NCBI GenBank assembly: GCA_934096275.1
Contig: CAKOLK010000003.1
Location: 28,366-92,365 of the forward strand
Direction: 5' to 3'
Origin: an uncultured Bacilli bacterium
GTDB lineage: Bacteria; Bacillota_I; Bacilli_A; RF39; UBA660
Length of the DNA: 64,000 nt
Shown here: in pieces, positions 1,801 to 55,740 of the stretch
Position numbering within the stretch: position 1 is the stretch's first letter
Layout of the letters: each line of letters starts with the position of its first letter
Translations under genes and position numbers: made by a program
The notes under the pieces: model-generated
What the model saw: only the letters and a program-made list of their open reading frames with translations
Told to the model about the DNA's origin: nothing
Database searches by the model: none

Positions 1801-4638
1801 ATGAATTTTATAAAAAATAATTATAAAAAAATAACTCCATTTATAATCATAATGTTAATAGCGATAATCTCATACTCAGTTACACAATCATCATACGCAC
1901 AAACAACCACAAAAACATTTACAAGACAAGAAATACAAGACATGATAGTATCCACTGCAACAAGTTATCTAAGAAATAATACATATTCAGACTACGATCA
2001 ACATGCAATGGATGCATCATCTACCTATAATGGGTCATCAATTACAACATTCAACTGGAGAGACTTTAATATAACACCAGAAATGGTAAGCAGAACTAAT
2101 AACTTTCATGATGACTGTAGTAGCTTCGTAGCACAAGTATTAATAAACTCAATAGATTATGACTTTTCAAATTACTATAACTATACATCAAATACATTCT
2201 ACTTATTTAAAAACTTTACTTACACACAGTCTAAGTCATCAAAAACGACATTTATCGAAGGCTATAAAAGAACAGGAAAAAGTATTTCAACATTCTTCTT
2301 CAATAAATTAGCAAACTCTATAGCAAACGTATCTAAAGGAACAGAATACAAAAACAATACTAATTTTGTAAACTATTACTATGAATTCACTGGAAGTGAA
2401 ACAACTTCTAAAAGAAACACTGTAATATCAAGTGTTAAACAAAGACTACAACCCGGAGACATTGTAGTATACAGACACACTTCATCATCAGGAAGTGCAA
2501 GCGGACACGTTATGATCTATGCCGGAGACTTCTACGACAACAATGGAACAAAAATGACTGGATTCATTCATTCAACAGGAAAAAGCTATGACTTTACAAC
2601 AGAAACACTAAATAGAGATAAATATGCAGTACAAACAGGTACAATGACTGTAAAAATAGATGATATAATAAACGATACCAAAACAACCTCATACATGATT
2701 CTAAGACCTATAAACTATTACTGTTCATCAAAAGATTCATGTAGTCTAACCGTACCAAACAATTCATTAGCAAGACCATCTATGAAAGATTTAAAAATAG
2801 AACAATACATATCCAAAGACAATAAAAATATATCTAAATACAATAGCGTCAATATTAATGATACACTTACATATAATTTAGATATAAAAAATATTAAAAT
2901 AAACCCAATAAAAAACATTACAATAACAGCATCAATACCAAGTAATACAACCTATGTTAGTTGTAATAACGATTGTAAATATAGTAACAATGAAATAACT
3001 TGGACACTAGGTAATAATAGTAATATAACAAACAATACATATAGTTATACAGTAAAAGTAAATAAAGAAAAAACAATTACTAATACAGGTTTTAAAATAA
3101 AAAATCCTGATAATACAATCCTTCAAATGAGTGAATTAAATACCAATATAAATCCAAGTATTAATAATGATCTAGATACTAATGTATTAACAAGTATAAT
3201 AAAACTATCCCAAGAATTAAATAAAAATGGATATCTAACATACGGAACAAGTACAAATGATAATACTTATAAAACAGACATTACTACTATAAATGAAAAT
3301 AATAAAATAACACTTTCATCAGTGGACTATATAAAGTTCTTATACTACAATGCTTATGGAATAGACTTAAGTACCATGACAAAAGATAATATAAAAACAT
3401 CACTATTTAATACTCAAAGCAGTCTATACTCTAGAAAAACTACTAATAGTGATGCTATATCACAAATGCTTGTACCAGGACTATATGGAGGAAGACTACT
3501 TAAAGGAAATGATAACAACGACCGTACAAGATTTATGGTACCAAGCGATCTTGAATTTGGAGACATAGTAACATTCTACACATCAAATGCAACTCTAATA
3601 AATATATATATATATCTAGGACAAGAAAATAACTATCCAACATTCTTAAGAATAGCAAGTGATAACACAATCACAAAACTAACTAACACATCAGCAGAAG
3701 ATTTATTCAATGCATTATATGCTAAAAATCTATTTGCAATATTTAGACCTACAAGATACTACGGAGTAACAATAACCCTACAAGACAATAATAAAAAAGA
3801 TCATATAACACTAGCTAAAAATACAACTTATAGAAATTTACCAATAATAGAAAAAAAATACACTGTAACATACGAATATAACACAACACCTGATAATGAA
3901 TGCAAAGATAAAGATGTAATTGATGATGTATTCGATGGCTGGTATAAAGACTCTACAAAAGTAGATGAAAAAACAACAATTACCGATCAAACAGCACATA
4001 CACTAACAGCAAAATATACAAATAAAGAAATAACATTACCAACTCCAACAAAACAAGGATTTAAGTTCCTAGGTTGGTATAAAGACTCAACATTACAAAA
4101 TAAAGCATCAGAAACTAATAAATACACACCTGAAAGTGATATAACACTATATGCTAAATGGGAAGAAGAACAACCGGACCCATCACCAGAACCAAATCCA
4201 AATCCTCCAAAAGAATTTGACATAACATCAGATGAATTCACTATAAAAGATGGTTATATCTACTTAAAAGAAAATAATAAAGAGTTTACAAGCTATATAA
4301 ATAAATTAAAATATGATAAATCATTTAACTATAACTTAAAACTATATGATAACAATAAAGAAATAACAAATAATATAGTATTTACAGGATCTAAACTAAA
4401 AGCAATAGACAATGACACAGTAATAAAAGAATATATAAACATTGTAAAAGGTGATGTTAATAAAACAGGAACAGTAACAATGGCCGACGTTATGAAACTA
4501 GTAGACTATCTATTTGATAACGACACGATGACTGAAGACTATAACCTAAAAGCAGGAGACGTCAATAATACTAACACAGTAACAATGGCCGATGTTATGA
4601 AACTAGTAGACTACATTCTAGAAGGAGGAGAACTATGA
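1801..4638 (+). CDS. secreted multidomain protein: NlpC/P60-like Cys/His hydrolase domain, Listeria-Bacteroides (Flg_new) repeats, C-terminal type-I dockerin
   Basis: Signal peptide MNFIKNNYKKITPFIIIMLIAIISYSVTQSSYA. DDCSSFVAQV with GHVMIYAGD gives a Cys/His pair. FDGWYKD...LTAKY and FKFLGWYKDS...LYAKW are Flg_new repeats. Two Ca-loop repeats GDVNKTGTVTMADVMKLVDY and GDVNNTNTVTMADVMKLVDY at the C-terminus. Confidence 0.6.
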   Translation: MNFIKNNYKKITPFIIIMLIAIISYSVTQSSYAQTTTKTFTRQEIQDMIVSTATSYLRNNTYSDYDQHAMDASSTYNGSSITTFNWRDFNITPEMVSRTNNFHDDCSSFVAQVLINSIDYDFSNYYNYTSNTFYLFKNFTYTQSKSSKTTFIEGYKRTGKSISTFFFNKLANSIANVSKGTEYKNNTNFVNYYYEFTGSETTSKRNTVISSVKQRLQPGDIVVYRHTSSSGSASGHVMIYAGDFYDNNGTKMTGFIHSTGKSYDFTTETLNRDKYAVQTGTMTVKIDDIINDTKTTSYMILRPINYYCSSKDSCSLTVPNNSLARPSMKDLKIEQYISKDNKNISKYNSVNINDTLTYNLDIKNIKINPIKNITITASIPSNTTYVSCNNDCKYSNNEITWTLGNNSNITNNTYSYTVKVNKEKTITNTGFKIKNPDNTILQMSELNTNINPSINNDLDTNVLTSIIKLSQELNKNGYLTYGTSTNDNTYKTDITTINENNKITLSSVDYIKFLYYNAYGIDLSTMTKDNIKTSLFNTQSSLYSRKTTNSDAISQMLVPGLYGGRLLKGNDNNDRTRFMVPSDLEFGDIVTFYTSNATLINIYIYLGQENNYPTFLRIASDNTITKLTNTSAEDLFNALYAKNLFAIFRPTRYYGVTITLQDNNKKDHITLAKNTTYRNLPIIEKKYTVTYEYNTTPDNECKDKDVIDDVFDGWYKDSTKVDEKTTITDQTAHTLTAKYTNKEITLPTPTKQGFKFLGWYKDSTLQNKASETNKYTPESDITLYAKWEEEQPDPSPEPNPNPPKEFDITSDEFTIKDGYIYLKENNKEFTSYINKLKYDKSFNYNLKLYDNNKEITNNIVFTGSKLKAIDNDTVIKEYINIVKGDVNKTGTVTMADVMKLVDYLFDNDTMTEDYNLKAGDVNNTNTVTMADVMKLVDYILEGGEL

Positions 4639-6560
4639 TAAAAAATATAAAATACCTACTATTTTTAGGACTATTTCTAATTCCATTAAATACAAATGCT
4701 GCATCAAGTAGTGTATCACTAAGCTGTCCATCAACTGCAAACCCAGGAAATACCATAAGTTGCAACATATCAATGAAAACAACCGGAGCAGTAGCAAATG
4801 GAATATCATTAAAATATGATTTCGCAAGTGGCTTATCATACGATAGCTTTACCCCATCATCATCATTTACACCACTAAAAAGTACTGCAACTGGCTTTGC
4901 GCTAAATGGTTCTGGTGGAGTACCATCATCAGTATCAATCGGAACTTTAAGAGTAAAAATATCAAACTCAGTTAACGGAGGTCAAAGTTATAAAGTAACA
5001 CTTAAATCAATTGACGTATCAACATATGATTCATCCACAAATAATTATGCCGATTTATATCCGAACGATGCAACAGCACAAATAAGAATAAAATCATCAA
5101 ACAACAATCTATCAAGCTTATCAGTATCAGGACATGAAATAAACTTCAATAAAAACACAACAACATATACATTAGAAACAACATCATCAAAAGTAACAGT
5201 AAGTGCAACAAAAGAAGACTCATATGCTACTATATCTGGTACAGGAACAAAAAGCTTATCATATGGACTAAACACAATCAAAGTAGTAGTAACATCAGAA
5301 ACAGGATCAAAGAAAACATACACAATAAACATAACAAGAAAAGATACTAGATCAGATGATGCAAAACTATCATCATTAACAGTAAGTAATGCTAATATAA
5401 ACTTTACACCTAATCAAACAATATATAATACATCAGTTGGATCAAGTATATCAAAAGTACAAATATCAGCTAAAACAAACAATGATAAAGCAACATTTAC
5501 AACAGGATATGGTCCAAGAACAGTAAACCTATCATATGGACAAAATACATTCAAACTAATAGTAAAAAGTGAAAAAGGTAACACTAGAACATATACAATA
5601 AATATAACGAGAAAAGATACTAGATCATCAAATAACAATCTATCAAGTTTATCAGTATCAGTAGGCAAAATAAACTTCAATAAAAACACAACAACATATA
5701 ACATAGACACTAAAAGTGATGTAACTAGTGCAACCATAAGTGCAACACTTGAAGATCAAAAATCAACATTTGTGAGTGGATACGCTCCAAGAACAGTATC
5801 ATTAAAAGAAGGATTCAACTCTTTCCAAATAAAAGTTAAAAATGAAAAAGGCACTATTAAAACATACACAATAAACATAACAAGAGAAGACGGAAAAAGT
5901 AGAAACAATAACCTAAAAGACTTAACACTTAGTACTGGTAATATAACATTTGATAAAAATAATTTAAATTATAACGTAACAGTAGAATATGAAATAGAAA
6001 AACTAACAATAAATGCAACTCCTGAAGACTCTAAAGCAAAAGTTACATATCAAAAAGAAAACACCCTAAAAGTTGGAGAAAACAAAATAACAATAACAGT
6101 CGAAGCAGAAAATAAAAGTACTAAAAACTATACAATAACAGTAACTAGAAAAGAAGAAGGAAAAAAACTATCAAACATAAGTAGTCTATCATCATTATAC
6201 ATTGATAACAAACAAATAACTCTAAATGAAAATCAAACAGAGTATACATACCAAACAACACAAACCGCAGCAAACGTAAAAGCAACACCTACAGATCCTA
6301 ATGCAAACATCACAGTAATAGGAAACAATAGTATAAAAGATGGTAGTATAATTCAAGTAATAGTAACAGCAGAAGACCAATCAACAACAATATATAAAAT
6401 AAAAATAGAAAAAAAAGAAGATAAAAACAATACTTTATTAATAATATTAATTCCAACTATAATAATAGTTATTGGTATAATAACATTTGCATTAATAACA
6501 AAAAATAAAAATAAAACAAGAGATATAGACGCAAATCTATTAAACTTAAATAGGAAATAG
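4635..6560 (+). CDS. membrane-anchored scaffold-like protein: putative cohesin domain, 5 cadherin-like beta-sandwich repeats, C-terminal TM anchor
   Basis: ATGA overlap with the upstream dockerin gene. Signal peptide present. The N-terminal domain carries ANGISLKYDFASGLSY, reminiscent of the cohesin IANCDFxxxYD motif. Five roughly 88-aa repeats read LSSLSVS...TYTINITRKDTRS (nt ~5094-6430). Hydrophobic C-terminus LLIILIPTIIIVIGIITFALI followed by KNKNK. Confidence 0.45.
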   Translation: MIKNIKYLLFLGLFLIPLNTNAASSSVSLSCPSTANPGNTISCNISMKTTGAVANGISLKYDFASGLSYDSFTPSSSFTPLKSTATGFALNGSGGVPSSVSIGTLRVKISNSVNGGQSYKVTLKSIDVSTYDSSTNNYADLYPNDATAQIRIKSSNNNLSSLSVSGHEINFNKNTTTYTLETTSSKVTVSATKEDSYATISGTGTKSLSYGLNTIKVVVTSETGSKKTYTINITRKDTRSDDAKLSSLTVSNANINFTPNQTIYNTSVGSSISKVQISAKTNNDKATFTTGYGPRTVNLSYGQNTFKLIVKSEKGNTRTYTINITRKDTRSSNNNLSSLSVSVGKINFNKNTTTYNIDTKSDVTSATISATLEDQKSTFVSGYAPRTVSLKEGFNSFQIKVKNEKGTIKTYTINITREDGKSRNNNLKDLTLSTGNITFDKNNLNYNVTVEYEIEKLTINATPEDSKAKVTYQKENTLKVGENKITITVEAENKSTKNYTITVTRKEEGKKLSNISSLSSLYIDNKQITLNENQTEYTYQTTQTAANVKATPTDPNANITVIGNNSIKDGSIIQVIVTAEDQSTTIYKIKIEKKEDKNNTLLIILIPTIIIVIGIITFALITKNKNKTRDIDANLLNLNRK

Positions 6561-6633: not shown

Positions 6634-7572
6634 ATGCAAAATTATATAGAACAATTAAAAATAAAATACAATTATGATGATAAAACAATAAATGCACTAA
6701 CTAAAGTCATACCCGCTCTAATAGACTATTATGGAATAGAATATGAAGATACAATTTTAAAAGCAATAAACGATACAGAAATAATATGTTGTAATTCCTA
6801 TCAAACAATTTCAAAAATAAAAGAAGAAAAAAAACTAACCACAAAAACAGGAAACACTCAATTAAAAGATATAGAGTCTGAAGGTGCATACCTTTCAAAT
6901 ATTAAAATAATTTATAACGAAATACAAAACAAATATGAAATAATAAAACAAAATAGAAAAATAGTAATATCACATACATACAACTTAGATTCACCAAAAG
7001 GACTTGAAGTATTAATACTAAATATATGTAGAACAATAAAAGCAGAAAACGAAGAATACACAGTAGACGGTAACACTTTAATTCAAAAAGAAGGCCTATC
7101 TGAAAGAACATATCAAATATCAATGGATGAAGAAAACATAAACTTAGACCTATCACATGAAACAAATATAGGTATTCATATAGGTTCCTTATTATATGAT
7201 ACAGAACAAATAGAATCAATCATTCTAAAAGACAAATATGACACTCATAAATACGATTATTTAAGACTAATAATAAAATACATAAAAGAAGTATTTGAAC
7301 TAAAAGAAACTCTAAATGAAGAAGAACTATTAAAAAATAATACTTTTAAAAACATATATCAAAACAAAAAACAATTCGAAGAACTATCAAATCAAATAGA
7401 TGAATGCTTAAATATAGAACACGAAATGGTAATATATGCCATGAATAGAGAAGAAAAAGATAAATTAGAACAAATACTAAAAGAAACATTCGAAGAAAAA
7501 ATGATCAAAGAATTAGTAATACTAAAAAAAGAATCAGACAAAATAAAAAGAGTTAAAACTCCTGAATACTAA
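6634..7572 (+). CDS. hypothetical protein
   Basis: Long ORF with RBS gggtgg; no family recognised. Confidence 0.4.
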   Translation: MQNYIEQLKIKYNYDDKTINALTKVIPALIDYYGIEYEDTILKAINDTEIICCNSYQTISKIKEEKKLTTKTGNTQLKDIESEGAYLSNIKIIYNEIQNKYEIIKQNRKIVISHTYNLDSPKGLEVLILNICRTIKAENEEYTVDGNTLIQKEGLSERTYQISMDEENINLDLSHETNIGIHIGSLLYDTEQIESIILKDKYDTHKYDYLRLIIKYIKEVFELKETLNEEELLKNNTFKNIYQNKKQFEELSNQIDECLNIEHEMVIYAMNREEKDKLEQILKETFEEKMIKELVILKKESDKIKRVKTPEY

Positions 7573-8441: not shown

Positions 8442-8519
8442 ATAATACCACCAAAAAATATTATAACAAAAATGAATAAAAATAACAAAAAAATATCACT
8501 ACATAAACAGGTGATAATA

Positions 8520-9290
8520 ATGAGTAAATATAAAGTAGATATAACAGGACTAAATACAAATAGTATTAAAGTCCTAACACAAGAAGAAATGGAAGAATTA
8601 TTTATAAAAATGAAACAAAATGATCAAAATGCAAGAGAAAAGTTAATACATGGTAATTTAAAACTAGTACTATCAATTCTAAAAAGATTCAATAAAAAAG
8701 ATGAAAACTTAGACGATCTCTTTCAAATTGGATGCATTGGACTAATAAAAGCAATAGATAATTTTGATTTGTCATATCAAGTAAAGTTTTCAACATATTG
8801 TGTTCCAATGGTAATGGGAGAAGTAAGGAGATACCTAAGAGATAACAATAGCATAAGAGTAAGCAGAAGTATAAAAGATACAGCTTATAAAATACTAAAA
8901 CTAAAAGATGAACTAACTATAAAAAATGGAAAAGAACCAACAGACGATGAATTAGCCAAATTATTAGAAATAGATAAAGCAGAACTAGCATTAGCACTAG
9001 ATTCATTAAGACAACCAGTAAGCCTATTTGAACCAATATACAATGATGGAGGAGACACTATCTATTTATTTGATCAAATTGAAGATAAAAAAAATAATAA
9101 CGACCTAGACATCCGATTAGCGGTCAATAAAGCAATAGAAAACCTAACTGAAAGAGAACAATACATAATAGATCAAAGATTCATGATAGGAAAAACCCAA
9201 ATGGAAATAGCACAAGAACTAGACATATCACAAGCACAAATATCTAGAATAGAAAAAACAGCACTACAAAGAATAAGAAAACAACTATAA
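8520..9290 (+). CDS. sigG: sporulation sigma factor SigG
   Basis: Near-collinear with B. subtilis SigG: MSKYKVDITGLNT..., GNLKLVLSI, DLFQIGCIGLIKAIDNFD, VSLFEPIYNDGGDTIY, GKTQMEIAQELDISQAQISRIEK. RBS aggtga precedes 8520. Confidence 0.85.
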   Translation: MSKYKVDITGLNTNSIKVLTQEEMEELFIKMKQNDQNAREKLIHGNLKLVLSILKRFNKKDENLDDLFQIGCIGLIKAIDNFDLSYQVKFSTYCVPMVMGEVRRYLRDNNSIRVSRSIKDTAYKILKLKDELTIKNGKEPTDDELAKLLEIDKAELALALDSLRQPVSLFEPIYNDGGDTIYLFDQIEDKKNNNDLDIRLAVNKAIENLTEREQYIIDQRFMIGKTQMEIAQELDISQAQISRIEKTALQRIRKQL

Positions 9291-9598: not shown

Positions 9599-9786
9599 AA
9601 TTATCACCTCATTTCTTAAAAAAAGATAATGAAGACGGCGCCCAAAGATACGTGCAATATAAATATAACAAATAAATGTTGTGTGTCAAGTTTATTGAGA
9701 GTAGAAAAATCTAACAAGAAATAGTACTTGAAAAAGTACTTTTTTTGTTATAGAATTAATATATAAGAAAATATGGAGGTAAAACT

Positions 9787-11482
9787 ATGAAAAACAAATA
9801 TTCGTATGGGGGGGGGGCGAAATACTTATAACCCTTTAAAAACTAAAGGAAGAAATAAAAAGATAACAACTATAATAATATTCCTAATACTAATAGTAGT
9901 TAGTATCTCTTTTGCTTTGTTTAATCCCAGTATTAATTTACTAGGAAGAAGAAATATAAAAATATCTAAATGTGAACTAGATATAAACTTTAAAGAAAGT
10001 GATGAGTTAATGCTAGTTAGTAAGTATCCTATATCTACAAGACAAGCCCTTGAAGGAGACTATAAACCTAAAACAGTTACTATAACTAATAATTCTACAT
10101 GTGATACAGCGTATTATAAATTAACTATAAAAGATTTAATAAACTCATCTATAAACAAAGATGTAATACAATATCATGTAGTAGATAAACAAAATACTAT
10201 GACGTATAAACTTGGAGATATTAATGGAGATGGAACAATAAAAATTTTTGATGTTACACTTATAAGGAGATATCAGAATGATACAGATAATTATTTTGGA
10301 TTACATTCAAATGCAAGATATGCTGCAGATTTAGATGGCAATGGCAAGATAAATGAAGAAGATGTTACATTACTTAGGCAATATATTTCGAATCCAAATG
10401 GTACTTTTCCCGCAGGCTCTCCACTTGAAGAAAAAACAACAACTAAAGAAATAATAGATGTAAACCCAGATACGTTCTTAATAGAAAATTCATTGGAAAA
10501 AGGACAAACACATGAATATGAAATAATGATGTGGATAAGTAATGTTGCAACAAATACAGATTTATACGTAAATGGAGATACAACAAAACCTATTGAATAT
10601 AAATATGCACTTAATATTGAAGCGTATGATGAAAAAAAGGAAGATGCTGAAATCGTTCCAATACTTAATATACCAGTAGGCACAAACGGTATTGAAAAAG
10701 TAACACATGAAATAGATGATACATTACAAGTAGATAGTAAGTTTGCAACAGAATATAGATATCGTGGAGGAGATTCAGTAGTAAATAACCGTGTAATATT
10801 TAATGATGAGACACGATGGAGAATCATCGGAGTAATACCGACTGAAGATACTTCTGGTAATGTAGAAAATAGAATAAAAATAATAAGAGATGAATCTATT
10901 GGAGAGTACGATTGGAATGAAGATGGTTTAAATGATTGGACAACTGCAACACTTAATACATATTTGAATAATGATTATTATAATACCTTAACAAGTGATG
11001 CTCAAAACATGATAGGAACAACAAAATATTATCTTGGTGGGTATGACTGGAGTGATGATACATTCACATTAGATATAATGTGGCGGTACGAAAGGAAAAA
11101 AGCAAATGATAATTTGGGTATATATTACTATGAAGGAAATCAAATAATGCAAAATGATGCCACTAAAAAGATAGCGCTAATGTATGCAAGTGATTATGGA
11201 TATGCAGCATCAAAAAAATGTTCAAAAGGGTTATTTTATTACAAGGAAGACGCTAATTGTATAACGACAAACAATTGGCTAGATAAATCGCAATATGAAT
11301 GGTTAATACCACAGGGGGTTGATACTAAATATGCATTCAATGTTAGTGATGGCGGTAATATAGAAATCGATGTTGTTAGTTACACTCATGCAGTTCGTCC
11401 AGTCCTAACACTCTCATCTAACGTAAAAATATCCGGAGGATCTGGCACAAGTTCTGACCCATACCAATTACAATTAAACTAA
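9787..11482 (+). CDS. phase-variable surface protein family member A (TM anchor, internal dockerin, conserved C-terminal domain); RBS-linked ATG currently out of frame
   Basis: ggaggtaaaactATG at 9787. G10 tract at 9808-9817. The long ORF is read from the internal ATG at 9806; 9 or 12 G would fuse the MKNKYSYGGG leader to it. Dockerin loops DINGDGTIKIFD and DLDGNGKINEED. Confidence 0.7.
9808..9817 (+). repeat. poly-G (G10) homopolymeric tract at the 5' end of the ORF, slipped-strand phase-variation site
   Basis: 10 consecutive G in a genome of about 27% GC, located between the RBS-linked ATG and the ORF body. Confidence 0.8.
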
Positions 11483-21555: not shown

Positions 21556-22260
21556 ATGTTTAAGTTTAATGAAGAAAAAATAAATAATTTAACAAGTGAA
21601 AAACTACAAAATAAAATGGAAACATTTAAAAATAAAATGGAAGAAACATTTGATAATAAAGATTTAAAATATATGAATGATAATCTAGAAACACTAAGAA
21701 TCTTTATATTAAAATCAAAACTATTTCAATATCCATATAAAGCAATGTATAACAATTTATCAAATGAATTAATGATTCTAGAAGAAGATGATACAATATA
21801 CCATGAACTATTACATCTATCATGTAATAATAGAAAAAGTAACAACACCATAAGAGGTTTTGCTCACTATACAAAAAAACAAAAAAACATCTTATCATTT
21901 GGTACTGGATTAGATGAAGTATATACTGAGATATTAGCAAACAGATTATTTAATAAAGAAATAAATGCAACAACTACAAAAACAGTAGAACTAGTATTAC
22001 TATTAGAACAATTAATAGATGATTTACCATCACTATATCTTAATTCAGACTTATATGAATTAGTTTTAGAACTAAGTAAATACACAAGTCTAAATGAATC
22101 ATTAGAGTTCATATACAACATTGATAGACTATATACATTAGAACAAAATATAAAAAATAATGATAAATACAATGAAATATATAGTAAAACACTATACTTC
22201 TTAAAACAATACCAATATAAAAGAAACTATCAAGAACAAAAGAAAAAAGTCCTAAAATAA
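21556..22260 (+). CDS. HExxH-motif hypothetical protein, tandem paralog 1
   Basis: IYHELLHLSCNN. Shares blocks with the next gene: FKNKMEETFD, YTEILANRLF, KTVELVLLLEQLIDDLPSLYLNSDLYELV, YNIDRLY. Confidence 0.5.
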   Translation: MFKFNEEKINNLTSEKLQNKMETFKNKMEETFDNKDLKYMNDNLETLRIFILKSKLFQYPYKAMYNNLSNELMILEEDDTIYHELLHLSCNNRKSNNTIRGFAHYTKKQKNILSFGTGLDEVYTEILANRLFNKEINATTTKTVELVLLLEQLIDDLPSLYLNSDLYELVLELSKYTSLNESLEFIYNIDRLYTLEQNIKNNDKYNEIYSKTLYFLKQYQYKRNYQEQKKKVLK

Positions 22261-22349
22261 AGGAATACTTTTGTTCTTTTTATATACATAAAACTTGTAA
22301 TAAAAATAATTATATGTTATTATATTGTGCAAACAGGGAGGGTATTCAT

Positions 22350-23144
22350 ATGCTTAAAAAAGATCAAGAAAAAATAAAATCACAAGAAGAAAAATTACAA
22401 GAACAATTAGAAATATATCAAAAAACATTAGAAGAAATTCTTGGGGGATCAATTCAATATGAGAATATAGACAAAAAAATAGAAATATTTAAGAATAAAA
22501 TGGAAGAAACTTTTGACAAAGAAGATTTGAAAAATATGAATGAAAATCTAAAAACATTAAAAATTCATATATGTAAACCATATTTATCAAAAATATTGCA
22601 ATATTTTACAAAAATGAAAGGATACTACTTACCAGAAGATAACACAATAGTACTTCTTGAAGAAGGCAATGTAATATATCATGAGTCATTACACTTATCA
22701 TGTAATACTGGAAAAAGTGAAAAAAACATTATTGGATTTGATCGCTATACAAACAAAGATAAAAAAATATTATTCTTTGGTAAAGGATTAAACGAAATAT
22801 ATACTGAAATACTAGCAAATAGATTATTTGATAAAGAAATAAAAATCATCACTAATAAAACAGTAGAACTAGTATTACAATTAGAACAATTAATAGATGA
22901 TTTACCATCTCTATACCTTAATTCAGATTTATATGAATTAGTTATAAAACTAAGTGAATATACAGACATAAATGAAGCACTTGATTTTGTATACAATATT
23001 GATAGATTATATGAAATAGAAACTAAAAAGAATGTTAAAAATCGTATCGAAAGATATGTTTCAGTATATCATAAAACACTACGTTTCTTAGTACAATGCC
23101 AATCTAAAAAAGAAAAACAAGAAAAGAAGAAAAAAACAAAATAA
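22350..23144 (+). CDS. HExxH-motif hypothetical protein, tandem paralog 2
   Basis: RBS gggaggg precedes MLKKDQEK. IYHESLHLSCN plus the same conserved blocks. Confidence 0.5.
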   Translation: MLKKDQEKIKSQEEKLQEQLEIYQKTLEEILGGSIQYENIDKKIEIFKNKMEETFDKEDLKNMNENLKTLKIHICKPYLSKILQYFTKMKGYYLPEDNTIVLLEEGNVIYHESLHLSCNTGKSEKNIIGFDRYTNKDKKILFFGKGLNEIYTEILANRLFDKEIKIITNKTVELVLQLEQLIDDLPSLYLNSDLYELVIKLSEYTDINEALDFVYNIDRLYEIETKKNVKNRIERYVSVYHKTLRFLVQCQSKKEKQEKKKKTK

Positions 23145-24278: not shown

Positions 24279-25553
24279 ATGGTTTTACCCGCAGATAGTT
24301 ACACAGTAATGAATAAAAGTTTAATAACAGATATAGATAAAAAAACACTAATAGATTTATACCAACCAATAATAGGCAATAAAGCAGTATCACTATACTT
24401 CACACTATTAAATGATTTAAATAAACAAGAAATAATATCAACACCAAATACCCATCATCATTTACTAAGTATTATGCAAATGTCTCTTGAAGAAATAGTA
24501 TCATCACGTGAAAAACTAGAAGCCATTGGACTACTTAGAACATATCTAAAAAAAGATAATATTAATAACTATGTTTATATACTATATTCACCATTACAAC
24601 CAAATGAATTCTTAAATCATCCAATACTAAACGTTGTTTTATACAATAACTTAGGAAAAAAAGAATATCAAAAAATATTAGAAACATATAAAACACCAAG
24701 AATAACTTTAAAAGACTACAAAGAAATATCATTAAAGTTTGATGAAGTATTCTCAAGTGTACCAGTATCTAATATAATACCAAATGAAGATATAATATCT
24801 AAAAATAAAACAGAAATAACATTTAAAAATGCAATAGATTTTGAACTATTAATATCTGGTATAAATAGTAATATGATAAATGAAAAGATATTCACAAAAG
24901 ATATAAGAGAACTAATTAATAATTTATCATTTATTTATAATATAGATGTACTAACTATGCAAAATCTAATTAAAACAAGTATTACTGAAAAAGGTACAAT
25001 AGATAAAGAAACTCTAAGAAAAAGTGCTAGAAACTTTTATCAATTTGAAAACAGTGGTAATCTTCCTACATTAATCTATTCAAAACAACCAGAACATTTA
25101 AAAAATCCAACTGGAGATGTATCTAATAAAGCCAAAATGATTTATACTTTTGAAAATACTAATCCATATCAATTTATAAAGAGTAAATATAAAGATGGAA
25201 AAGTAATAAAAAAAGATTTACTATTAATCGAAGAACTTTTAATAGATTTAAAACTAACCCCTGGAGTAGTTAATGTTTTACTTGACTATGTATTAAGAGT
25301 AAACAATAAAAAACTAAATAAAGCATATGTAGAAACAATTGCTAGTCATTGGAAAAGATTAGGTATAGAAACAGTAGAAGAAGCAATGAATATATGCATA
25401 AAAGAACATAAAAAGACTATTAAGAAAGTACCTAATACAAACACTAAAACAAAAGAATCAGTACCAGAATGGTTTAATGAACAAATAAATAAAGATGAAT
25501 TAAAAGAACAAGAAGAACAAGAATTAAAAGATTTATTAAAACAATACTCTTGA
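24279..25553 (+). CDS. replication initiation/membrane attachment protein (DnaB/DnaD-like, DnaD C-terminal domain)
   Basis: The C-terminal block LLIEELLIDLKLTPGVVNVLLDYVLRVNNKKLNKAYVETIASHWKRLGIETVEEA resembles a DnaD/DnaB_2 domain. Confidence 0.5.
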   Translation: MVLPADSYTVMNKSLITDIDKKTLIDLYQPIIGNKAVSLYFTLLNDLNKQEIISTPNTHHHLLSIMQMSLEEIVSSREKLEAIGLLRTYLKKDNINNYVYILYSPLQPNEFLNHPILNVVLYNNLGKKEYQKILETYKTPRITLKDYKEISLKFDEVFSSVPVSNIIPNEDIISKNKTEITFKNAIDFELLISGINSNMINEKIFTKDIRELINNLSFIYNIDVLTMQNLIKTSITEKGTIDKETLRKSARNFYQFENSGNLPTLIYSKQPEHLKNPTGDVSNKAKMIYTFENTNPYQFIKSKYKDGKVIKKDLLLIEELLIDLKLTPGVVNVLLDYVLRVNNKKLNKAYVETIASHWKRLGIETVEEAMNICIKEHKKTIKKVPNTNTKTKESVPEWFNEQINKDELKEQEEQELKDLLKQYS

Positions 25554-25608
25554 AAAACTTCCAGAAATAGTATAAAATTAACTTATAATAAACTATGGAG
25601 GCAAAACT

Positions 25609-27832
25609 ATGAAAAACAAATATTCGTATGGGGGGGGGGGAAAAAAATTCTAGTAAAATAAACCCTTTATTTAAAGATATAAAAGAATATAATAAATATC
25701 TATTATCATTAATAGGTATTTTTGTACTATTACTTTCAGGTATTATTTCTTATAATTATACAAATACTTCTTATGCAAAATGGAGTAGTAGTGTAGAATC
25801 TAAAAATATTATTAAATTGCATGTTAAATCTAATTTAGATGAAAGTGGGGCAAATGAACCTAAAATAACATCAAACATGATACCGGTATATTATGATGAA
25901 ACAAATAGTGTATGGAGAAAAGCAGACGTTAAAAATAGCAAAGAACAATACAAATGGTATGATTATAATAACAAGATGTGGGCAAATGCAATTACTACCT
26001 TTCCTTATGAAGAAAAAGTTACTGACACTATTAAAAAAAATATTAATGTAATGCCATATTCACTTACATCTGAGTCAAGTAATAATGCAAATACTGCGGT
26101 AAATTCACAATACAAAATGTCATTTACTACAACTAAAGCTAGTACCTTTTCTTTTGATTACAGTATGCTAAAAGGTACGAAAACATCAAAATTTCAAGTA
26201 ACAATAAACGGTACTACTGAAGTAAACAAAGACTTTTCAGGTAATTATAGTGATACTGTTTTTGGAGGAACTTATACCGACTCATTCTCTAAAAATCTTG
26301 AAGCAAATAAGAAATATACAGTTATCATAAATGCAGAAGTTACATCATCTAATGCAGGTGCAGATAATAGTATTACAGTGTCAAATATAAATTTAACTAA
26401 TGAATATACAAATTTTTCATATGAAAATAGTGGTTCAAAATTTACAGTGAATTATTATCTGAGCCATTCATATGCACTTGATCAAGTCACTGGTAAATAC
26501 GTATTAGATTTAATCAATACCTCGTCAGAATATTTGAAAGATAGTTATATATGTCCCAATACTACTTCAAATATTTGTGATGAAATATATAAAATAGTTG
26601 ATATAACTTATGGACACATGTGGTCTGCAGAGGTAACTGATGCAACAATAAATAGCTATGTATCATATACATCTAAAAATATAGAAAATGAATTCTCAAA
26701 AAAAGAAATTGGTGAAGAAATACCATTAGATAAAATAAGCACAATGTGGGTCTGGATACCAAGGTATACATATACTTATCTTAATACAAATACACCACAA
26801 GAAATAAGCATAAAGTTTGAAAAAGGAACATCAAGTAGTGGTACAATAAAATGCGTTGATAACGTAACATATACTGGTACAACTTCAGAAACATGTACTG
26901 ATACAACAAATTCATCATTAAAAACAGGAATTTCCACATATACGCATCCAGCATTTACATTTGGGGAAGATGAATTAACAGGAATATGGGTAGGCAAATT
27001 TACTAATAGTAGTTACATAATAAAAAAACCAGATGAAATAGTAGAAAATAATATAATAATAAAACCAAATGAAACATTTTTAAAATTAAGTGCATCAGAG
27101 GCGTTTAAAACAATAAGGACAATGGAAAAAACAAATAATATGTATAAGTTTAATCAAAAAAATGATACCATGTTTAATTGGAATGGGGAACTTTCATATG
27201 ATTCGAACAACATAGATACACACATGATGAAAAATATGGAATGGGGAGCAGTAGCATATTTTTCGCATTCTAAATATGGTAGATGTACAAATAGTATTTG
27301 TGAAGAAATAACAATTAATAATTGCACTGAAGCTATAACTGGTATTGGTGGTAATACAGTTGATGCAAACTACAGTTCATCAGCGTGTACAACCACTGAA
27401 AATAAATACAATGGTTCAAAAGGAAAAAAAGCAAGTACTACAGGAAATATATATGGAATATATGATATGAGTGGCAACGATACACTCGTAATGGGTAATG
27501 TAACCAGTTCATCAAATCAATTTCAACCATCAAAAGCAGGAAATTGGAATACAACAACATATCCTTTAGCAAAATACTATGATAATTATTCAAATGGAGG
27601 ATCAAGCGATACTTATCAACGTGGAAAATTAGGAGATGCAACAGTTGAAATGGCTCCAACACGAGCATCGAGTGATAATTGGTATTCAGATTATACTATT
27701 TTTCCATATTATACAGAATCATGGTTTATTCGAGGAGGAAGCTATGTTAGTGACAGTGATGCAGGTATTTTTGCATTTGAAAGTGGTAATGGTGATGACA
27801 AAACTTCTAGATCAATATTAGTTATAAAATAG
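25609..27832 (+). CDS. phase-variable surface protein family member B; RBS-linked ATG currently out of frame
   Basis: ggaggcaaaactATG at 25609. G11 tract at 25630-25640; 10 or 13 G would fuse the MKNKYSYGGG leader to the 734-aa ORF. A TM helix follows the leader. Confidence 0.7.
25630..25640 (+). repeat. poly-G (G11) phase-variation tract
   Basis: 11 consecutive G. Confidence 0.8.
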
Positions 27833-27903
27833 CCTTTTGCATAAAATAAATAATCATCTAAAAAATGGTTAAGTTTTTTAATAAAAACCCATAAAAAATA
27901 ACT

Positions 27904-27963
27904 TTTTCGTGCATTTTGTACGAAAAAACCAGTAAAAATGCGTACGTTTTGTACGAAAATTAC
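27904..27963. promoter_or_regulatory. two direct copies of the near-palindromic 13-mer TTTTGTACGAAAA, spaced 33 bp apart
   Basis: Copies at 27914-27926 and 27947-27959, each preceded by TGCG/TGCA. Confidence 0.4.
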
Positions 27964-28053
27964 TAAAAAAGCACTTTATATAAAACAATAAAAGACAAAA
28001 GTATCATCTAATTTACATTATGATGATACTTTTATTTTAAAATCTTCCAACTA

Positions 28054-28089
28054 TTATTGATAAAATATCTTATAAATGATAAAATATCT
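28054..28089 (+). promoter_or_regulatory. tandem direct repeat GATAAAATATCTTATA x2 immediately upstream of the ireB RBS
   Basis: Two 16-bp copies separated by 5 bp. Confidence 0.4.
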
Positions 28090-28116
28090 TATAGATATTT
28101 CTAAAGGAGTGATAGT

Positions 28117-28365
28117 ATGGAAGACAAGACTATGGTTTTTAATATTGACGATTTAAATAACTACATGGTCACTGAAACATTACTTAATGTAAAAAACAAT
28201 CTTGAAGAAAAAGGATACAAAGGAATAGACCAAATAGTAGGCTATCTTCTTACGGGAGATGAAACATATATTTCTAATTATAAAGATTCAAGAAAAAAAA
28301 TACAAAGTATAGAACGTGAAATAATCATAAAGACACTTGTTAAAAACTATCTAAGAGATTTATGA
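28117..28365 (+). CDS. ireB: IreB family regulatory phosphoprotein (UPF0297)
   Basis: GYLLTGDETYISNY, about 82 aa, followed by ruvX. Confidence 0.8.
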   Translation: MEDKTMVFNIDDLNNYMVTETLLNVKNNLEEKGYKGIDQIVGYLLTGDETYISNYKDSRKKIQSIEREIIIKTLVKNYLRDL

Positions 28366-28775
28366 GATATTTAGGACTAGACTTAGGCAAAAAATCATTA
28401 GGAATATCTTTATCAGATAAACTTGGTTTAATTGCATCATTTTATAAAAATATTAAAAGTGATGATGAAGAAGAGTTAATCGAAGAAATACTAAAAATAA
28501 TTGAAAAAGAACATGTTGATGAAATAGTACTAGGACTACCTAAAAACATGAATGGTTCCTTAGGATTTCGTTGCGATGAAACAATAGAGTTTAAAGAAAA
28601 ATTAGAACAAAAAACAAATAAAAAAGTTCATCTTGAAGACGAAAGACTAACTACTAAAGTAGCACAACAAGTACTAATAAATGCAGATGTGTCAAGAAAA
28701 AAAAGAAAAAAAGTAATTGATGGAGTATCCGCCGTAGTGATACTACAATCGTTTTTAGATAAGGGAGGAAAATAA
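28362..28775 (+). CDS. ruvX: YqgF/RuvX Holliday-junction resolvase-like pre-16S rRNA nuclease
   Basis: MRYLGLDLGKKSLGISLSD...GLPKNMNGS. Confidence 0.9.
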   Translation: MRYLGLDLGKKSLGISLSDKLGLIASFYKNIKSDDEEELIEEILKIIEKEHVDEIVLGLPKNMNGSLGFRCDETIEFKEKLEQKTNKKVHLEDERLTTKVAQQVLINADVSRKKRKKVIDGVSAVVILQSFLDKGGK

Positions 28776-28776
28776 T

Positions 28777-29076
28777 ATGGAAGAAAACAAAAATGAAGAA
28801 TTAAGAGAAGATATGTTTATAGGATTCAATGAAAAAGGAGAACAAAAAACATTTTACAAACTTTTAGAATTTGATTCAAATGAAACAGGTAAACACTATC
28901 TTGCTTACACTGACAACGAAACAGATGAAGAAGGAAACTTAAAAGCATATGGCTCAATAGTGATCGAAGAAGGAGATCATACAAAACTTGAACCAATTAC
29001 AACTGAAAAAGAATGGAAAGTAATTGAAATGGCTCTTAAAGTTTTACAAGAAGAAGTGACAGATAAAAATGAATAG
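28777..29076 (+). CDS. DUF1292 protein (YrzB-like)
   Basis: FYKLLEFD...HYLAY; conserved position after ruvX. Confidence 0.7.
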   Translation: MEENKNEELREDMFIGFNEKGEQKTFYKLLEFDSNETGKHYLAYTDNETDEEGNLKAYGSIVIEEGDHTKLEPITTEKEWKVIEMALKVLQEEVTDKNE

Positions 29077-30154
29077 TAAGAATAAAAAGAAAAAAGTAAA
29101 GTTTAAAAAAGGCTTCAAAATCGGAGTCTTAGTCTTTTTACTTGTAATAATCATATTATCAACTACTATATACTTATTAACACCAGTATCAAGTAGTACT
29201 AAAAAAGAAATAATAACAATTGAAAGTGGTACATCAACTAAAGAAATCGCAACAATTCTAAAAAATAAAAAGCTTATTAAAAGTAAAACATTCTTTACAA
29301 TATACTCTAAAATAAAAAAAGCAAATTACTATGCAGCATCATATGAAATAAGTCCTAATATGTCACTTAATGAAATTATAAATGAATTACAAACAAATGG
29401 CACTAATATCAATGAAGTTACAATAACTATAAAAGAAGGACAAAATATGAGACAAATTGCTAAACTAATATCAGAAAATACTAGTATTAAATATGATGAT
29501 ATAATTAAAAAAACAAAAGAAAAAAAATACTTAGATAAATTAATTGATAAATATTGGTTTATTGAAAAAGATATAAAAAATGATAATCTTTACTATAATC
29601 TTGAAGGATATCTATTCCCAGATACATACCAAATCGATAAAAAAGAAACCAATATTGAAAATGTTTTTGAAGTCCTATTAAATCAAATGGACCAAGTATT
29701 AAGTGAATATAAGAAAGATATTGAAAAATCTAACTACAGCATTCACAAACTACTTACATTAGCATCAGTTACACAAAGCGAAGGTTATAATGAAGACGAC
29801 TTTAAAAATATAGCAAGTGTTTTTTATAATAGAATGAAAGATGATATGCCTTTAGGTAGTTGTGTAACATCATACTATGGTGTTAAAAAAGAAATGACTG
29901 AAGCACTAACTAATTCAGACATTAATAATCAAAATGCCTACAACACACGCGGTAACAATCCAGCATTATTCCCAATTGGACCAATATCCGCTCCAGGTAA
30001 GAAAGCAATCGAAGCAGTAGTAAAACCAATTAAAACAAATTACTATTACTTTGTTTCAGACAAAAATCATAAATTATATTTTACAAAAACACTAAAAGAA
30101 CATGAGCAAACAATAAATAAATTAGAACAAGAAGGATTGTGGTTACAATGGTAG
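29069..30154 (+). CDS. mltG: endolytic murein transglycosylase MltG (YceG-like)
   Basis: N-terminal TM; conserved order after ruvX and DUF1292, followed by the O-methyltransferase and U32 peptidases. Confidence 0.8.
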   Translation: MNSKNKKKKVKFKKGFKIGVLVFLLVIIILSTTIYLLTPVSSSTKKEIITIESGTSTKEIATILKNKKLIKSKTFFTIYSKIKKANYYAASYEISPNMSLNEIINELQTNGTNINEVTITIKEGQNMRQIAKLISENTSIKYDDIIKKTKEKKYLDKLIDKYWFIEKDIKNDNLYYNLEGYLFPDTYQIDKKETNIENVFEVLLNQMDQVLSEYKKDIEKSNYSIHKLLTLASVTQSEGYNEDDFKNIASVFYNRMKDDMPLGSCVTSYYGVKKEMTEALTNSDINNQNAYNTRGNNPALFPIGPISAPGKKAIEAVVKPIKTNYYYFVSDKNHKLYFTKTLKEHEQTINKLEQEGLWLQW

Positions 30155-30747
30155 AAAAAACATACAATGAAATTAAAACAATAAAAGAGTACGCATTAGT
30201 AAATAAAGTACCAATTATGGTAGATGATAGCATTGACTTTATAATATCAAAAATACATCAAAAAAGAGTAAGAAAAGTACTTGAAATAGGTACTGCAATC
30301 GGATACTCTGCAATTATGATGGCACTATCATCACCAAATATTACAATAACATCAATAGAAAAAGACAAAGATAGATACCTTGAAGCAGTAAAAAATATTA
30401 AAAAGTTTAATCTTGAAGATAGGATAACTCTAATATATAACGACGCCCTTGAAGTATCACTAAAAGAAAAATACGATCTTATTTTAATTGATGCTGCTAA
30501 AAGTAAAAACCTAGATTTCTTCAACAAATTCGAAAAAAATCTAGAACCAAATGGAATAATAATAACAGATAACTTAAGCTTCCATGGCTACGTAGAACAA
30601 GAACCATCACAAATAAAAAATAGAAACATCAGAGCCTTAGTTAGAAAAATAAGAAACTACATAGACTTTTTAGAAAATAATCTTAAATATAAAACAACAT
30701 TCTATGAAATCGGAGATGGACTATCAGTTACAGAAAAAAGGATGTGA
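30139..30747 (+). CDS. class I SAM-dependent O-methyltransferase (YrrM-like)
   Basis: VLEIGTAIGYSAIMMA SAM-binding motif. Confidence 0.8.
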   Translation: MVTMVEKTYNEIKTIKEYALVNKVPIMVDDSIDFIISKIHQKRVRKVLEIGTAIGYSAIMMALSSPNITITSIEKDKDRYLEAVKNIKKFNLEDRITLIYNDALEVSLKEKYDLILIDAAKSKNLDFFNKFEKNLEPNGIIITDNLSFHGYVEQEPSQIKNRNIRALVRKIRNYIDFLENNLKYKTTFYEIGDGLSVTEKRM

Positions 30748-30753
30748 TGTAAT

Positions 30754-31578
30754 ATGAAACTATTAGTCATACCAACATCTATAAATATTAAAAAATATGA
30801 GAATGCCTCTGCATTCCTTTTTGGTTTAAAAGACTTCTCATACACAACACCTATATCTATAACATTAAAAGAATTAAAAAAAATAAAACAAAAAACCAAT
30901 AAAGAAATATTTGTAAAAATAGATAAAAACATCTTTAATAAAGATATAGAAAATTTAAAAAAAACTCTATTAGAGCTAGAAAAACTAAATATAAATGGAA
31001 TCTTCTTTTATGATTTATCAGTATTATCATTATCAAAAAAACTAAACTTAAAAACTCCATTAATATGGAATCAAAACTTTTTTGTAACCAATTATAAAAC
31101 TTGCAATCATTATGAAGCCCAAGGAGTCTATGGAGCAGTAACCTCATCTGAAATAACACTACAAGAAATCCTAGAAATAAGAAAAAATACTAACTTTAAA
31201 CTATTTGTTAATATATTTGGTTATCAAATGATGGCATTTTCTAAAAGAAAACTAATTACTAATTACTTTAAATACTTAAAAAAGAAAAACTACAAAAGAA
31301 ATAACTATATAATTGAAAAAGATAAAAAGTTCTTAATAAAAGAAACAAAAGAAGGAACAATGATCCTATCAGATAAAATATTAAATGGATTAAAATATAA
31401 GAATGAGTTAGAAAAATCTAAAATAGATTACTTAATATTAGATCAAACAATGATAAAAGATAAAGACTTTAAAAAAGTATTACAAGCTATAAAAAATAAT
31501 AAAGATATAGACAATATTATTCCCAATACAGATACTTTATTCCTAGATAAAAAAACAATATATAAGGTGAAAAGATGA
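30754..31578 (+). CDS. peptidase U32 family protein (YrrN-like)
   Basis: Position and size match yrrN upstream of the U32 peptidase yrrO. Confidence 0.5.
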   Translation: MKLLVIPTSINIKKYENASAFLFGLKDFSYTTPISITLKELKKIKQKTNKEIFVKIDKNIFNKDIENLKKTLLELEKLNINGIFFYDLSVLSLSKKLNLKTPLIWNQNFFVTNYKTCNHYEAQGVYGAVTSSEITLQEILEIRKNTNFKLFVNIFGYQMMAFSKRKLITNYFKYLKKKNYKRNNYIIEKDKKFLIKETKEGTMILSDKILNGLKYKNELEKSKIDYLILDQTMIKDKDFKKVLQAIKNNKDIDNIIPNTDTLFLDKKTIYKVKR

Positions 31579-32756: not shown

Positions 32757-32837
32757 AAAAGTACCCAAAAAACTTGACAAAATCCAAAAAAAATAGTATC
32801 CTTTTAGAGAACTTATTAATTTAGAGGTGAATTTAAA

Positions 32838-33311
32838 ATGAATAATAAAAAACCAATCCTTTTAACAAAAGAAGGATATGAAGAAATAAAAGAAGAATTA
32901 AACGATTTGATAAATGTTAAAAGACCTGCGAACATTGAAGCAATAAAAGAAGCAAGAGCACTTGGAGACCTTTCTGAAAATGCCGATTATGATGCTGCAA
33001 GAAATGAACAAGCTGAAATAGAAGCAAAAATTAAAAAATTAGAAACTATTTTAGAAAACGTTCAAATAATTGAATCAGTTAGTACTGATGAAGTAGGAGT
33101 AGGAACAACAGTAAAAATTGCCTATATTGACGATGAAGATGATGTTGATCAATACAAGATAGTTGGTTCTCAAGAAGCAGACCCATTTGAAAGCAAAATA
33201 TCAAATGAATCTCCAATTGCTAAAGCCCTAATGGGACACAAAGTCGGAGATATCGTTTCAGTAGAAAGTCCAAATGGAAGTTACGAAGTAAAAGTAATAG
33301 AAATTAACTAA
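32838..33311 (+). CDS. greA: transcription elongation factor GreA
   Basis: N-terminal coiled coil plus a C-terminal FKBP-like domain. Confidence 0.9.
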   Translation: MNNKKPILLTKEGYEEIKEELNDLINVKRPANIEAIKEARALGDLSENADYDAARNEQAEIEAKIKKLETILENVQIIESVSTDEVGVGTTVKIAYIDDEDDVDQYKIVGSQEADPFESKISNESPIAKALMGHKVGDIVSVESPNGSYEVKVIEIN

Positions 33312-33364
33312 AAACAGATGAAATTAATCTGTTTTTTTTGTATAATATTAAGTGGTGAAGCAGT

Positions 33365-36756: not shown

Positions 36757-36856
36757 ATAAATCATTGAAAAACGCTCAAAAATATTGTATTATTAATTTA
36801 TAAGAATAATAGACAATATTTTTTAATTTTTGTCTAAAGATTAAGGAGGAAAAAAT

Positions 36857-38348
36857 ATGAACAAATATTCGATTGGGGGGGGGGCAAAAATTAACTAACC
36901 CTAATAGAAAGAAAGTGCTATTTATGATATCTTTATCATTATTTATGGTAGCAATATTATCTTTTGGGGCATACGCCTTATGGAATAGTGAACTACTTAC
37001 TGGTAATAATAGTATAACTACAGGACAAGTAAAGATGAGTTATACTGAATCAAATGAAATAGGAATGAATAATGCATTACCTATTAAAGATAGTGAGGGT
37101 AAGGTATTAACTAATTACTTTGATTTTAAAGTTCTTTCTTATATTAAAACAAGAGCAAATGATGATACACAAAGAAAACTAAATTATAACATAGTACTAG
37201 AACCATTAACAGTAGAAACACCTTTAAACGACAATGAGATAAAAGTGTATCTAACTATGGTGGAGAATGGAAATGAGACAGTAGTAGTTGAACCTACAAC
37301 AATTGATCAACTAAATAATAAAGTTTTAAGTTCTAAAGAAGAAATATTTTCAAATAATAAAGCAGAAGTAGTAACAAGTTATAGACTTAGAGCTTGGATT
37401 GATGAGAGTGTAGATACAACTAAACTTAATGAAAAGAAATATAGTTATAGATTTAGAGTAAATATTAATAATGAAGCTGCACCAGTAAAAGAAGATCATG
37501 CACTTACTTTTGCTAAATCTAAAGTTGGAACAGATGGATTAGAACAAATAACTCATACAATAGATAATACATTACAAGTAGATAGTAAGTTTGCAACAGA
37601 ATATAGATATCGTGGAGGAGATTCAGTAGTAAAAAATTATGTAACATTCAATAATGAAACATGGAGAATAATTGGAGTAATACCTACTGAAGATACAGAT
37701 GGTAATGTGGAAAATCGAATTAAGATAATAAGAGATGCATCTATAGGAAATATGGAATGGAATACTACAGAAGATACAACAACTAGTTCATATAATAACT
37801 GGGTAACAGGAACATTAAATACATACTTAAATAATGATTATTATAATACATTAACAAGTGATGCAAAATACATGATAGGGACAGCAAAATATTATCTTGG
37901 GGGATACAATACTTCACAAATAACAACTGATGTAATGTGGCAATATGAAAGAAAAAATGAAGCAAATAGAACAGGTTACTATTATGGAACAAACCCAATA
38001 ATGTTAAATGATACAAGTAAAAAGATAGCAATAATGTATGCAAGTGATTATGGATATGCAGCATCAAAAGAATGTACAAGTAACTTATTTGATTATGATG
38101 ATACAAGTTGTAAAACAACAAATAACTGGCTAGATAAGAGTGAAACTACATGGTTACTTGCACAATATTCTGATAGCCACGAACACGCATTTTATATAGA
38201 TAGGGGAGAGTACGTTGCTCTGCCTAGTTCTAATGGATATGTATATGGTGATATTTACGCAGTGCAACCTGTCCTAACTTTATCATCCAATGTAAAAATA
38301 TCAAGTGGCTCAGGTACAAGTTCTGACCCATACAAATTAAGCCTATAA
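36857..38348 (+). CDS. phase-variable surface protein family member C; RBS-linked ATG currently out of frame
   Basis: aaggaggaaaaaatATG at 36857. G10 tract at 36875-36884; 9 or 12 G would fuse the MNKYSIGGG leader to the 491-aa ORF. C-terminal domain is homologous to member A. Confidence 0.7.
36875..36884 (+). repeat. poly-G (G10) phase-variation tract
   Basis: 10 consecutive G. Confidence 0.8.
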
Positions 38349-54652: not shown

Positions 54653-54668
54653 AAAGGAAGATGATAAA

Positions 54669-55565: not shown

Positions 55566-55740
55566 TACGATAGTTAATAATATCTTAATTTAATCTTATA
55601 ATCATCAAATGGTAGAGTTATTTTTGCATAAAAAAATATAAGAACATCGACATATACCAATTTATTTGTATTTACGATAATGAAAAATCAAAATATGAGT
55701 TCTTATATAAAAGTAAATAAAATCAGAGTATCCAATAATA

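Follow-up and report, generated by a model that had tools for sequence, protein, structure and literature searches.

Poly-G contingency loci are textbook biology of Campylobacter, Neisseria and Haemophilus. In the opa genes of Neisseria, CTCTT pentanucleotide repeats lie in the signal-peptide coding region, and the products are outer-membrane beta-barrel adhesins. The phasome of Campylobacter jejuni consists of intragenic poly-G/C tracts at many loci per genome, where the reading frame sets the ON or OFF state (PMC6321876, PMC8355987). Homopolymer switches described in Firmicutes include the 5' poly-A of Listeria inlA and the C8/C7 tract of mga in group A Streptococcus (PMC2831843, PMC11868660). 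Here we analyzed a stretch of 64,000 nucleotides (nt) of DNA from an uncultured Bacilli bacterium (contig CAKOLK010000003.1; hereafter the window), in which three genes, loci A, B and C, carry a run of ten or eleven G shortly behind the start codon. We consider it probable that the three loci are a multigene family of contingency loci that switch by slipped-strand mispairing at their poly-G tracts. The mechanism is classic; the novelty lies in the lineage, in the protein families and in the portable leader cassette, and no description of this poly-G family, or of poly-G switching in this lineage, was found in the literature searched.

Each gene has its own promoter-like site, a strong ribosome-binding site with an ATG, a conserved leader of 6-7 codons and a poly-G tract early in the coding sequence. 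In the proposed mechanism, slipped-strand mispairing would add or remove a G when the DNA is replicated, bringing the ATG that is linked to the Shine-Dalgarno (SD) sequence into or out of the frame of the long open reading frame (ORF). Independent switching of each gene would then yield a population with many combinations of exported binding proteins. Four sequence-level traits of contingency loci were present here: i) the repeat is of hypermutable length (a G/C run of ~7-8 or more); ii) it lies between the start codon and the ORF body; iii) its length is polymorphic with conserved flanks; iv) the ORFs are intact in OFF alleles.

Anatomy and reading frames of loci A, B and C

Only three G/C runs of at least 7 occur in the window (26.6% GC), namely G10, G11 and G10, and G8 was matched 10 times, always within these three tracts, versus 0.03 matches expected from shuffled sequence. 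Each tract is preceded by a promoter-like site, an SD, an ATG and a leader, which is ATGAAAAACAAATATTCGTAT in both A and B and ATGAACAAATATTCGATT in C (Table 1). As sequenced, reading from the SD-linked ATG ends after 14 (A), 14 (B) and 13 (C) codons at a premature stop, which is 4 codons beyond the tract, and behind the tracts ORFs of 487-729 codons remain open. Removal of one G or addition of two G in silico joined leader and long ORF into the fused ORFs of Table 1. All three loci are therefore one G too long in the assembly consensus, i.e., OFF or at most leaky.

These results bear on an earlier note made from the letters of this DNA. Its three poly-G loci with SD, ATG and shared leader (G10, G11 and G10) were confirmed by coordinates and by direct reading, its observation that long G runs are otherwise absent from the low-GC window held, and the changes in tract length reproduced its frame logic (SD-linked ATG out of frame, ORF restored by -1 or +2 G). 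The early stop which it reported after the tract is present, its place now being refined, and its statement that all loci are OFF stands for the assembly consensus, in which mixed lengths in a population are invisible. An in-frame start at the tract edge, ATG or TTG, also exists as claimed, 19 (A), 19 (B) and 16 nt (C) past the SD-linked ATG; it is about 23-26 nt past the SD and not the 19-22 nt given in that note. In this +1 state (one G too many), with the edge ATG or TTG in frame, some leaky expression may be possible.

Table 1. Window positions of the features that make up loci A, B and C
Locus	Feature	Positions	Strand	Remarks
A	Promoter-like site, TTGAAA-17-TAGAAT	9728..9756	+	
A	Shine-Dalgarno GGAGG	9775..9779	+	Read directly; 7 nt 5' of ATG 9787
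A	Leader codons, ATG AAA AAC AAA TAT TCG TAT (MKNKYSY)	9787..9807	+	
A	G10 tract	9808..9817	+	Frame restored by G9 or G12
A	Short ORF from SD-linked ATG, as sequenced	9787..9831	+	MKNKYSYGGGAKYL, then stop
A	Long ORF	9806..11482	+	558 amino acids (aa) from tract-edge ATG; 564 aa leader-fused (G9)
B	Promoter-like site, TTGAAA-17-TAAAAT	25550..25578	+	
B	Shine-Dalgarno GGAGG	25597..25601	+	7 nt 5' of ATG 25609
B	Leader codons (MKNKYSY)	25609..25629	+	DNA-identical to leader of locus A
B	G11 tract	25630..25640	+	Frame restored by G10 or G13
B	A7 run adjoining the G tract	25641..25647	+	A6 in syntenic strain L021
B	Long ORF	25628..27832	+	740 aa leader-fused at G10 or G13
C	Promoter-like site, TTGAAA-17-TATTAT	36765..36793	+	
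C	Shine-Dalgarno GGAGG	36845..36849	+	7 nt 5' of ATG 36857
C	Leader codons (MNKYSI)	36857..36874	+	
C	G10 tract	36875..36884	+	Frame restored by G9 or G12
C	Long ORF	36873..38348	+	491 aa from tract-edge TTG; 496 aa leader-fused (G9)

Upstream of locus A, a hairpin (AGTACTTGAAAAAGTACT) with a T-run (window 9720-9745) was found, which takes the same position in most family members and resembles a terminator of the preceding gene; the -35 hexamer TTGAAA of the poly-G gene is contained in its loop.

The poly-G family and its products

In related genomes, i.e., metagenome-assembled genomes (MAGs) from Hadza gut labelled 'uncultured Bacilli', the pattern AACAAATATTCGWWT followed by at least 7 G occurred 19 times across three species (~10, 6 and 3 copies), and 13 further occurrences were found in other metagenome contigs. 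Tracts were G9-G11 in both sets, and G9-G13 over the whole family. Across 262 kb of related DNA, G runs reach 8 or more only in the leader context, and the leader pattern was not found in viral contigs. The conserved module extends from the hairpin with its -35 hexamer through -10, SD, leader and tract into the first codons of the putative export signal. In the genes of the window, GGG accounts for 4% of Gly codons and TCG for 1.3% of Ser codons; therefore the tract is not a coding necessity, and conservation of the leader is at the level of nucleotides. TCG, rare among Ser codons (9802-9804, 25624-25626 and 36869-36871 in the window), is retained in every leader copy seen, the variant leaders MTNINSY and MVNKYSS included.

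Comparison of the 400 nt upstream of each locus revealed seven orthologous sets whose members differ by one G at an upstream identity of 94-99.5%. For example, with flanks 97-99.5% identical, the tract is G11 in L001 and G10 in L003, L022 and L031 (L labels mark relatives); G9 in L002 and G10 in L014; G10 in L008 and L028 and G9 in L019; G10 in L009 and G9 in L025; and G10 in L020 and G9 in L026. Moreover, at the site of G11A7 in window B the tract of L021 reads G10A6, on a contig that shares 14 kb of synteny (93-97% identity) with the window; the 160 nt around the tract are otherwise identical. At the protein level, clusters formed at 90% identity hold different states of the same gene: the product of window B (P0121, MGGGE...) clusters with an ON form (P0242, MKNKYSYGGGQ..., 739 aa), and in the A-orthologue clusters MGGG-start and leader-fused forms occur together (P0009 with P0243, and P0010 with P0246), the cluster of P0009 and P0243 holding in addition a truncated call, P0244. 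Cluster members with different states come from different samples. Thus the comparison of tract lengths across relatives, a check set beforehand, showed near-identical loci with G9, G10 or G11.

Among 32 scorable loci, 7 were ON, 21 were +1 and 4 were +2, and all OFF loci (25/25) keep the long ORF or stay open to the contig end. Of the protein clusters, 32 begin with MGGG (the tract-edge ATG) and 19 are leader-fused in frame. Alleles with an interrupted tract exist as well (e.g., P0123, MKNKYSYRGG, with 80 member sequences). Some relatives (P0199, P0103 and P0116) reach the long ORF at G10 by another route: in one of them the leader's A-run is altered by one base (ATGAAAAC...), and in the others an SD-overlapping ATG (ATGGAGG...) serves, its +1 frame being open if GAA is the second codon.

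As for the products, protein A combines a hydrophobic segment in its N-terminal part with a dockerin type I domain and, at the C-terminus, DUF6273. Protein C is 57% identical to A across the C-terminal 330 aa, and B is unrelated in sequence to C except for the leader. Downstream of the tract, each of the three proteins carries a stretch of basic residues, a segment that is hydrophobic and the motif (S/A)-(Y/F)-A, which together we read as a putative export signal. A sequence search of the PDB matched protein A with dockerins only and returned no match for protein B. The AlphaFold model of B (66 homologues; predicted local distance difference test (pLDDT) 80.7, predicted template modelling score (pTM) 0.75) shows an N-terminal helix (residues 18-45) and a beta-rich ectodomain with the C-type-lectin/formylglycine-generating enzyme (FGE)-like fold of the target proteins of diversity-generating retroelements (DGRs). 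The model of C was poor (20-sequence alignment, pLDDT 49.9) and was left out of the fold search. DUF6273 has been described as C-type-lectin-like in DGR targets (PMC10743442), and in the IgA protease of Thomasclavelia it makes up the N-terminal domain (PMC12402451). The products are therefore probably exported proteins of ligand-binding type (A with dockerin and DUF6273, C DUF6273-like, B with the C-type-lectin/FGE fold), presumably exposed at the surface. Slipped-strand phase variation of surface or exported proteins, as the earlier note had read these loci, is thus supported by tract polymorphism, intact ORFs in OFF alleles and product features.

A DGR-target status was considered for B and rejected: no pair of template and variable repeats for its 3' end was found in the window, and no reverse transcriptase domain was found among the window ORFs scanned against Pfam. 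Therefore proteins A, B and C are DGR-like in fold only.

Relatives without the tract exist for all three proteins: those of A have a lysine-rich N-terminus (e.g., MKKMLEKFKK...), those of B an ordinary lysine-rich one (e.g., MPVREKFDSFKK...), and among the matches listed all homologues of C (109/109) begin with MNTKKKK... and are tract-less. Thus the leader cassette was seemingly added to pre-existing genes, and these appear, as judged from the sequences, to belong to at least two unrelated families. Coding regions either diverge more quickly than the DNA upstream of them (83-90% versus 97-99.5% identity) or are replaced altogether while their place in the chromosome is kept, as expected of variable exported proteins. 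In L017, from another species, which has the same leader and aligns to window 25439-33866 with flanks 88% (upstream) and 96% (downstream) identical, the gene body (612 aa) is without detectable DNA similarity to window B; this suggests that gene bodies are exchanged like cassettes while the chromosomal site stays the same.

Alternatives to the proposed slipped-strand switching

Several points weigh against switching by slippage: i) the tract differences between assemblies could be fixed differences; ii) MutS is intact in the window (33365-35902); iii) homopolymer length in a short-read metagenome can err by one base at a single locus; iv) the +1 state is in excess (21/32; nominal binomial p = 2e-4 versus 1/3, the loci being non-independent), which simple unbiased switching does not predict; v) +1 is kept where the ON length has shifted (window B and L001, both G11 and ON at G10). 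As to MutS, Campylobacter is not known to have this repair system, and Neisseria and Haemophilus, which are repair-proficient, still switch. The states are most simply read as a mutational equilibrium around G10, ON being G9. Under such an equilibrium the consensus would be mostly OFF while a minority of cells would be ON, and a mostly-OFF consensus would fit a large variable family with few members active at a time. That DNA slippage underlies the polymorphism is our inference, as are its reversibility and rate and any selective agent acting on it (host immunity or phage).

The excess of +1 alleles might also mean that G10 is itself a working state. In the fullest version, which we hold to be rather unlikely, a portable cassette (promoter, SD, ATG, 7-codon leader and poly-G) would have been grafted onto at least two unrelated lectin-fold families, whose relatives in other lineages lack it, and G10 would be a low-expression state reached via +1 slippage or the edge start, so that display would be graded and combinatorial and not a set of binary switches.

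Via the edge start, the tract would act at three levels: strong, SD-driven expression at G9 or G12, weak expression at G10 from the edge ATG or TTG (formed as TAT-G or ATT-G), and none at G11. The G10 product (MGGGQ...) would keep the full export signal, and lic1A of H. influenzae, with start codons in two frames, offers a comparison. Wherever a +1 locus has TAT or ATT ahead of its tract, the edge ATG or TTG is in the long-ORF frame; and since the export signal has both its positively charged and its hydrophobic part beyond the tract, the leader peptide is not needed. However, the edge start lies 23-26 nt past GGAGG, no other SD-like motif was found before that start, and three of the four possible bases before TG give a start codon by chance. 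Furthermore, a lineage with TCT before the tract, and hence CTG at the edge (L033), is still G10, which weakens the edge start as the cause of the G10 excess. Three-level switching of this kind strikes us as unlikely.

Via recoding, G10 would be the working allele, and the long ORF would be translated after a +1 slip of the ribosome on GGG_G; in a variant, RNA polymerase would slip on the G run and make some G9 transcripts, either route amounting to constitutive low expression. This would account for the dominance of +1 among the loci (21/32) and of MGGG-start over leader-fused protein clusters (32 versus 19), for its persistence despite the shifted ON length in window B and L001, and for the intact ORFs of OFF alleles; the rarity of GGG (4% of Gly codons) also favours it, as rare codons promote pausing and slippage. 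On the other hand, a programmed +1 frameshift of the prfB type has a fixed, conserved shift site, whereas tract length here is not conserved, in contrast to usual recoding sites, and ranges over G9-G13 among orthologues. In-frame G9 alleles are common (7/32 loci and 19 protein clusters), +2 alleles occur too, and among relatives of locus B the +1 forms do not outnumber the ON forms. The unimodal G9/G10/G11 distribution is also compatible with a mutational equilibrium around G10, and no stimulatory element was identified. No tRNA genes were found in the window when the tRNA-Gly repertoire was examined to judge GGG decoding. We give recoding, in its ribosomal and polymerase forms together, very little chance; recoding and the edge start need not exclude each other.

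That the frameshifts are homopolymer errors of assembly or marks of decaying pseudogenes is highly improbable: although the window is a metagenome scaffold, short-read homopolymer lengths can be one base off and L010 and L030 look degraded (leader and G10 without a long ORF), the design of leader plus tract recurs in independent assemblies from different projects with lengths mixed inside single assemblies, ORFs of 487-729 codons survive downstream at a genomic GC content of 27%, the same genes also occur as ON alleles, and the leader conserves GGG and TCG, which are rare codons.

Genomic setting and relation to known switches

The poly-G loci are surrounded by chromosomal housekeeping genes (Mur ligase, AckA, RuvX, YceG, GreA, MutS, ThrRS, FtsW and ComEC). 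The window is part of a 104.5-kb metagenome scaffold (ENA ERZ28615129, scaffold_328). An origin from a phage or plasmid was rejected, since window 9000-30000 gave no megablast match to phage or plasmid collections, and also because of this chromosomal context and the absence of the leader pattern from viral contigs. Directly upstream of locus A is a gene for a sporulation-type sigma factor of the SigF/SigG family (8472-9290, +). Its best match is SigG at 368.8 bits, below the cut-off of 372; the 'spore-forming' label of the earlier note thus gains a hint from a SigG-like factor and is not established. The order of sigma gene and poly-G gene recurs in a second lineage (L033; L032 is also listed).

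Two large putative surface proteins without the poly-G leader are encoded at 1801-6560, one (945 aa) combining DUF11 with a Listeria-Bacteroides repeat and a dockerin, the other (641 aa) carrying four cadherin-like domains. In the related strain L023 a gene with leader and G10 follows this 945/641-aa pair, and the window has an unrelated ORF there (6634-7572). Paralogous ORFs also lie side by side at 21556-22260 and 22314-23144 (region 21556-23144; 78-82% DNA identity, no Pfam or NCBIfam match). At 54456-57150 there are three tandem units of ~1.2 kb (70-88% identity) with paralogous ORFs, among them one with a YhcG-type PDDEXK nuclease domain (54978-55565). An AbiEii-type nucleotidyltransferase toxin gene (42614-43456, in region 41824-43456) is preceded by an unannotated ORF of 265 aa, which may be its antitoxin partner. 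A full-length ornate large extremophilic (OLE) RNA (RF01071) was found at 60504-61113 (+) with 398 bits versus a gathering score of 50, and the ORF directly 3' of it (61203-61937) might be the candidate partner OapA.

If the contingency reading is true, gut commensals, and not pathogens alone, would use stochastic ON/OFF display of binding proteins as a strategy of colonisation, and the family would supply candidate host-, glycan- or phage-interacting proteins in a lineage without a cultured representative. Gene callers split or truncate these genes (calls starting with MGGG..., MFNPS... or MLVSKYPIS...), so the poly-G family is systematically mis-annotated in metagenome catalogues.

The controlled proteins have the same binding fold that DGRs mutate. 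Unlike the DGR proteins TaqVP, Treponema TvpA and Mtd of the Bordetella phage, however, they would vary by ON/OFF switching plus divergence or exchange of gene bodies, and not by mutagenic retrohoming. The few homopolymer switches known in Firmicutes concern single genes, whereas here ten or more probable switches per genome share one leader cassette in a low-GC gut commensal. As in Listeria inlA and Streptococcus mga, a short homopolymer close to the gene's 5' end would inactivate it reversibly; those are A7-A8 or C7-C8 tracts, in contrast to a G9-G13 multigene family.

By tract type and genome composition, the closest system appears to be the poly-G phasome of Campylobacter. Both have tracts of the G8-G13 type within coding sequence, a low-GC genome otherwise without such runs, many loci per genome, one length peak with +/-1 neighbours, and ON/OFF set by the frame. 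On the other hand, all tracts here lie in one shared 5' leader cassette, while those of C. jejuni take assorted positions in unrelated genes; the present lineage is a gut one labelled Bacilli, with MutS in the window; and its products are probably exported proteins of lectin fold, those of C. jejuni being mainly glycan-modifying enzymes. By architecture, the opa family of Neisseria seems closest. It likewise is a multigene family with a promoter per copy, a conserved 5' end with the repeat in the leader, most copies OFF, and gene bodies that are variable or recombine; each copy switches its frame independently, as is proposed here. The poly-G family differs from opa in having a mononucleotide repeat and in placing one leader on at least two unrelated protein families.
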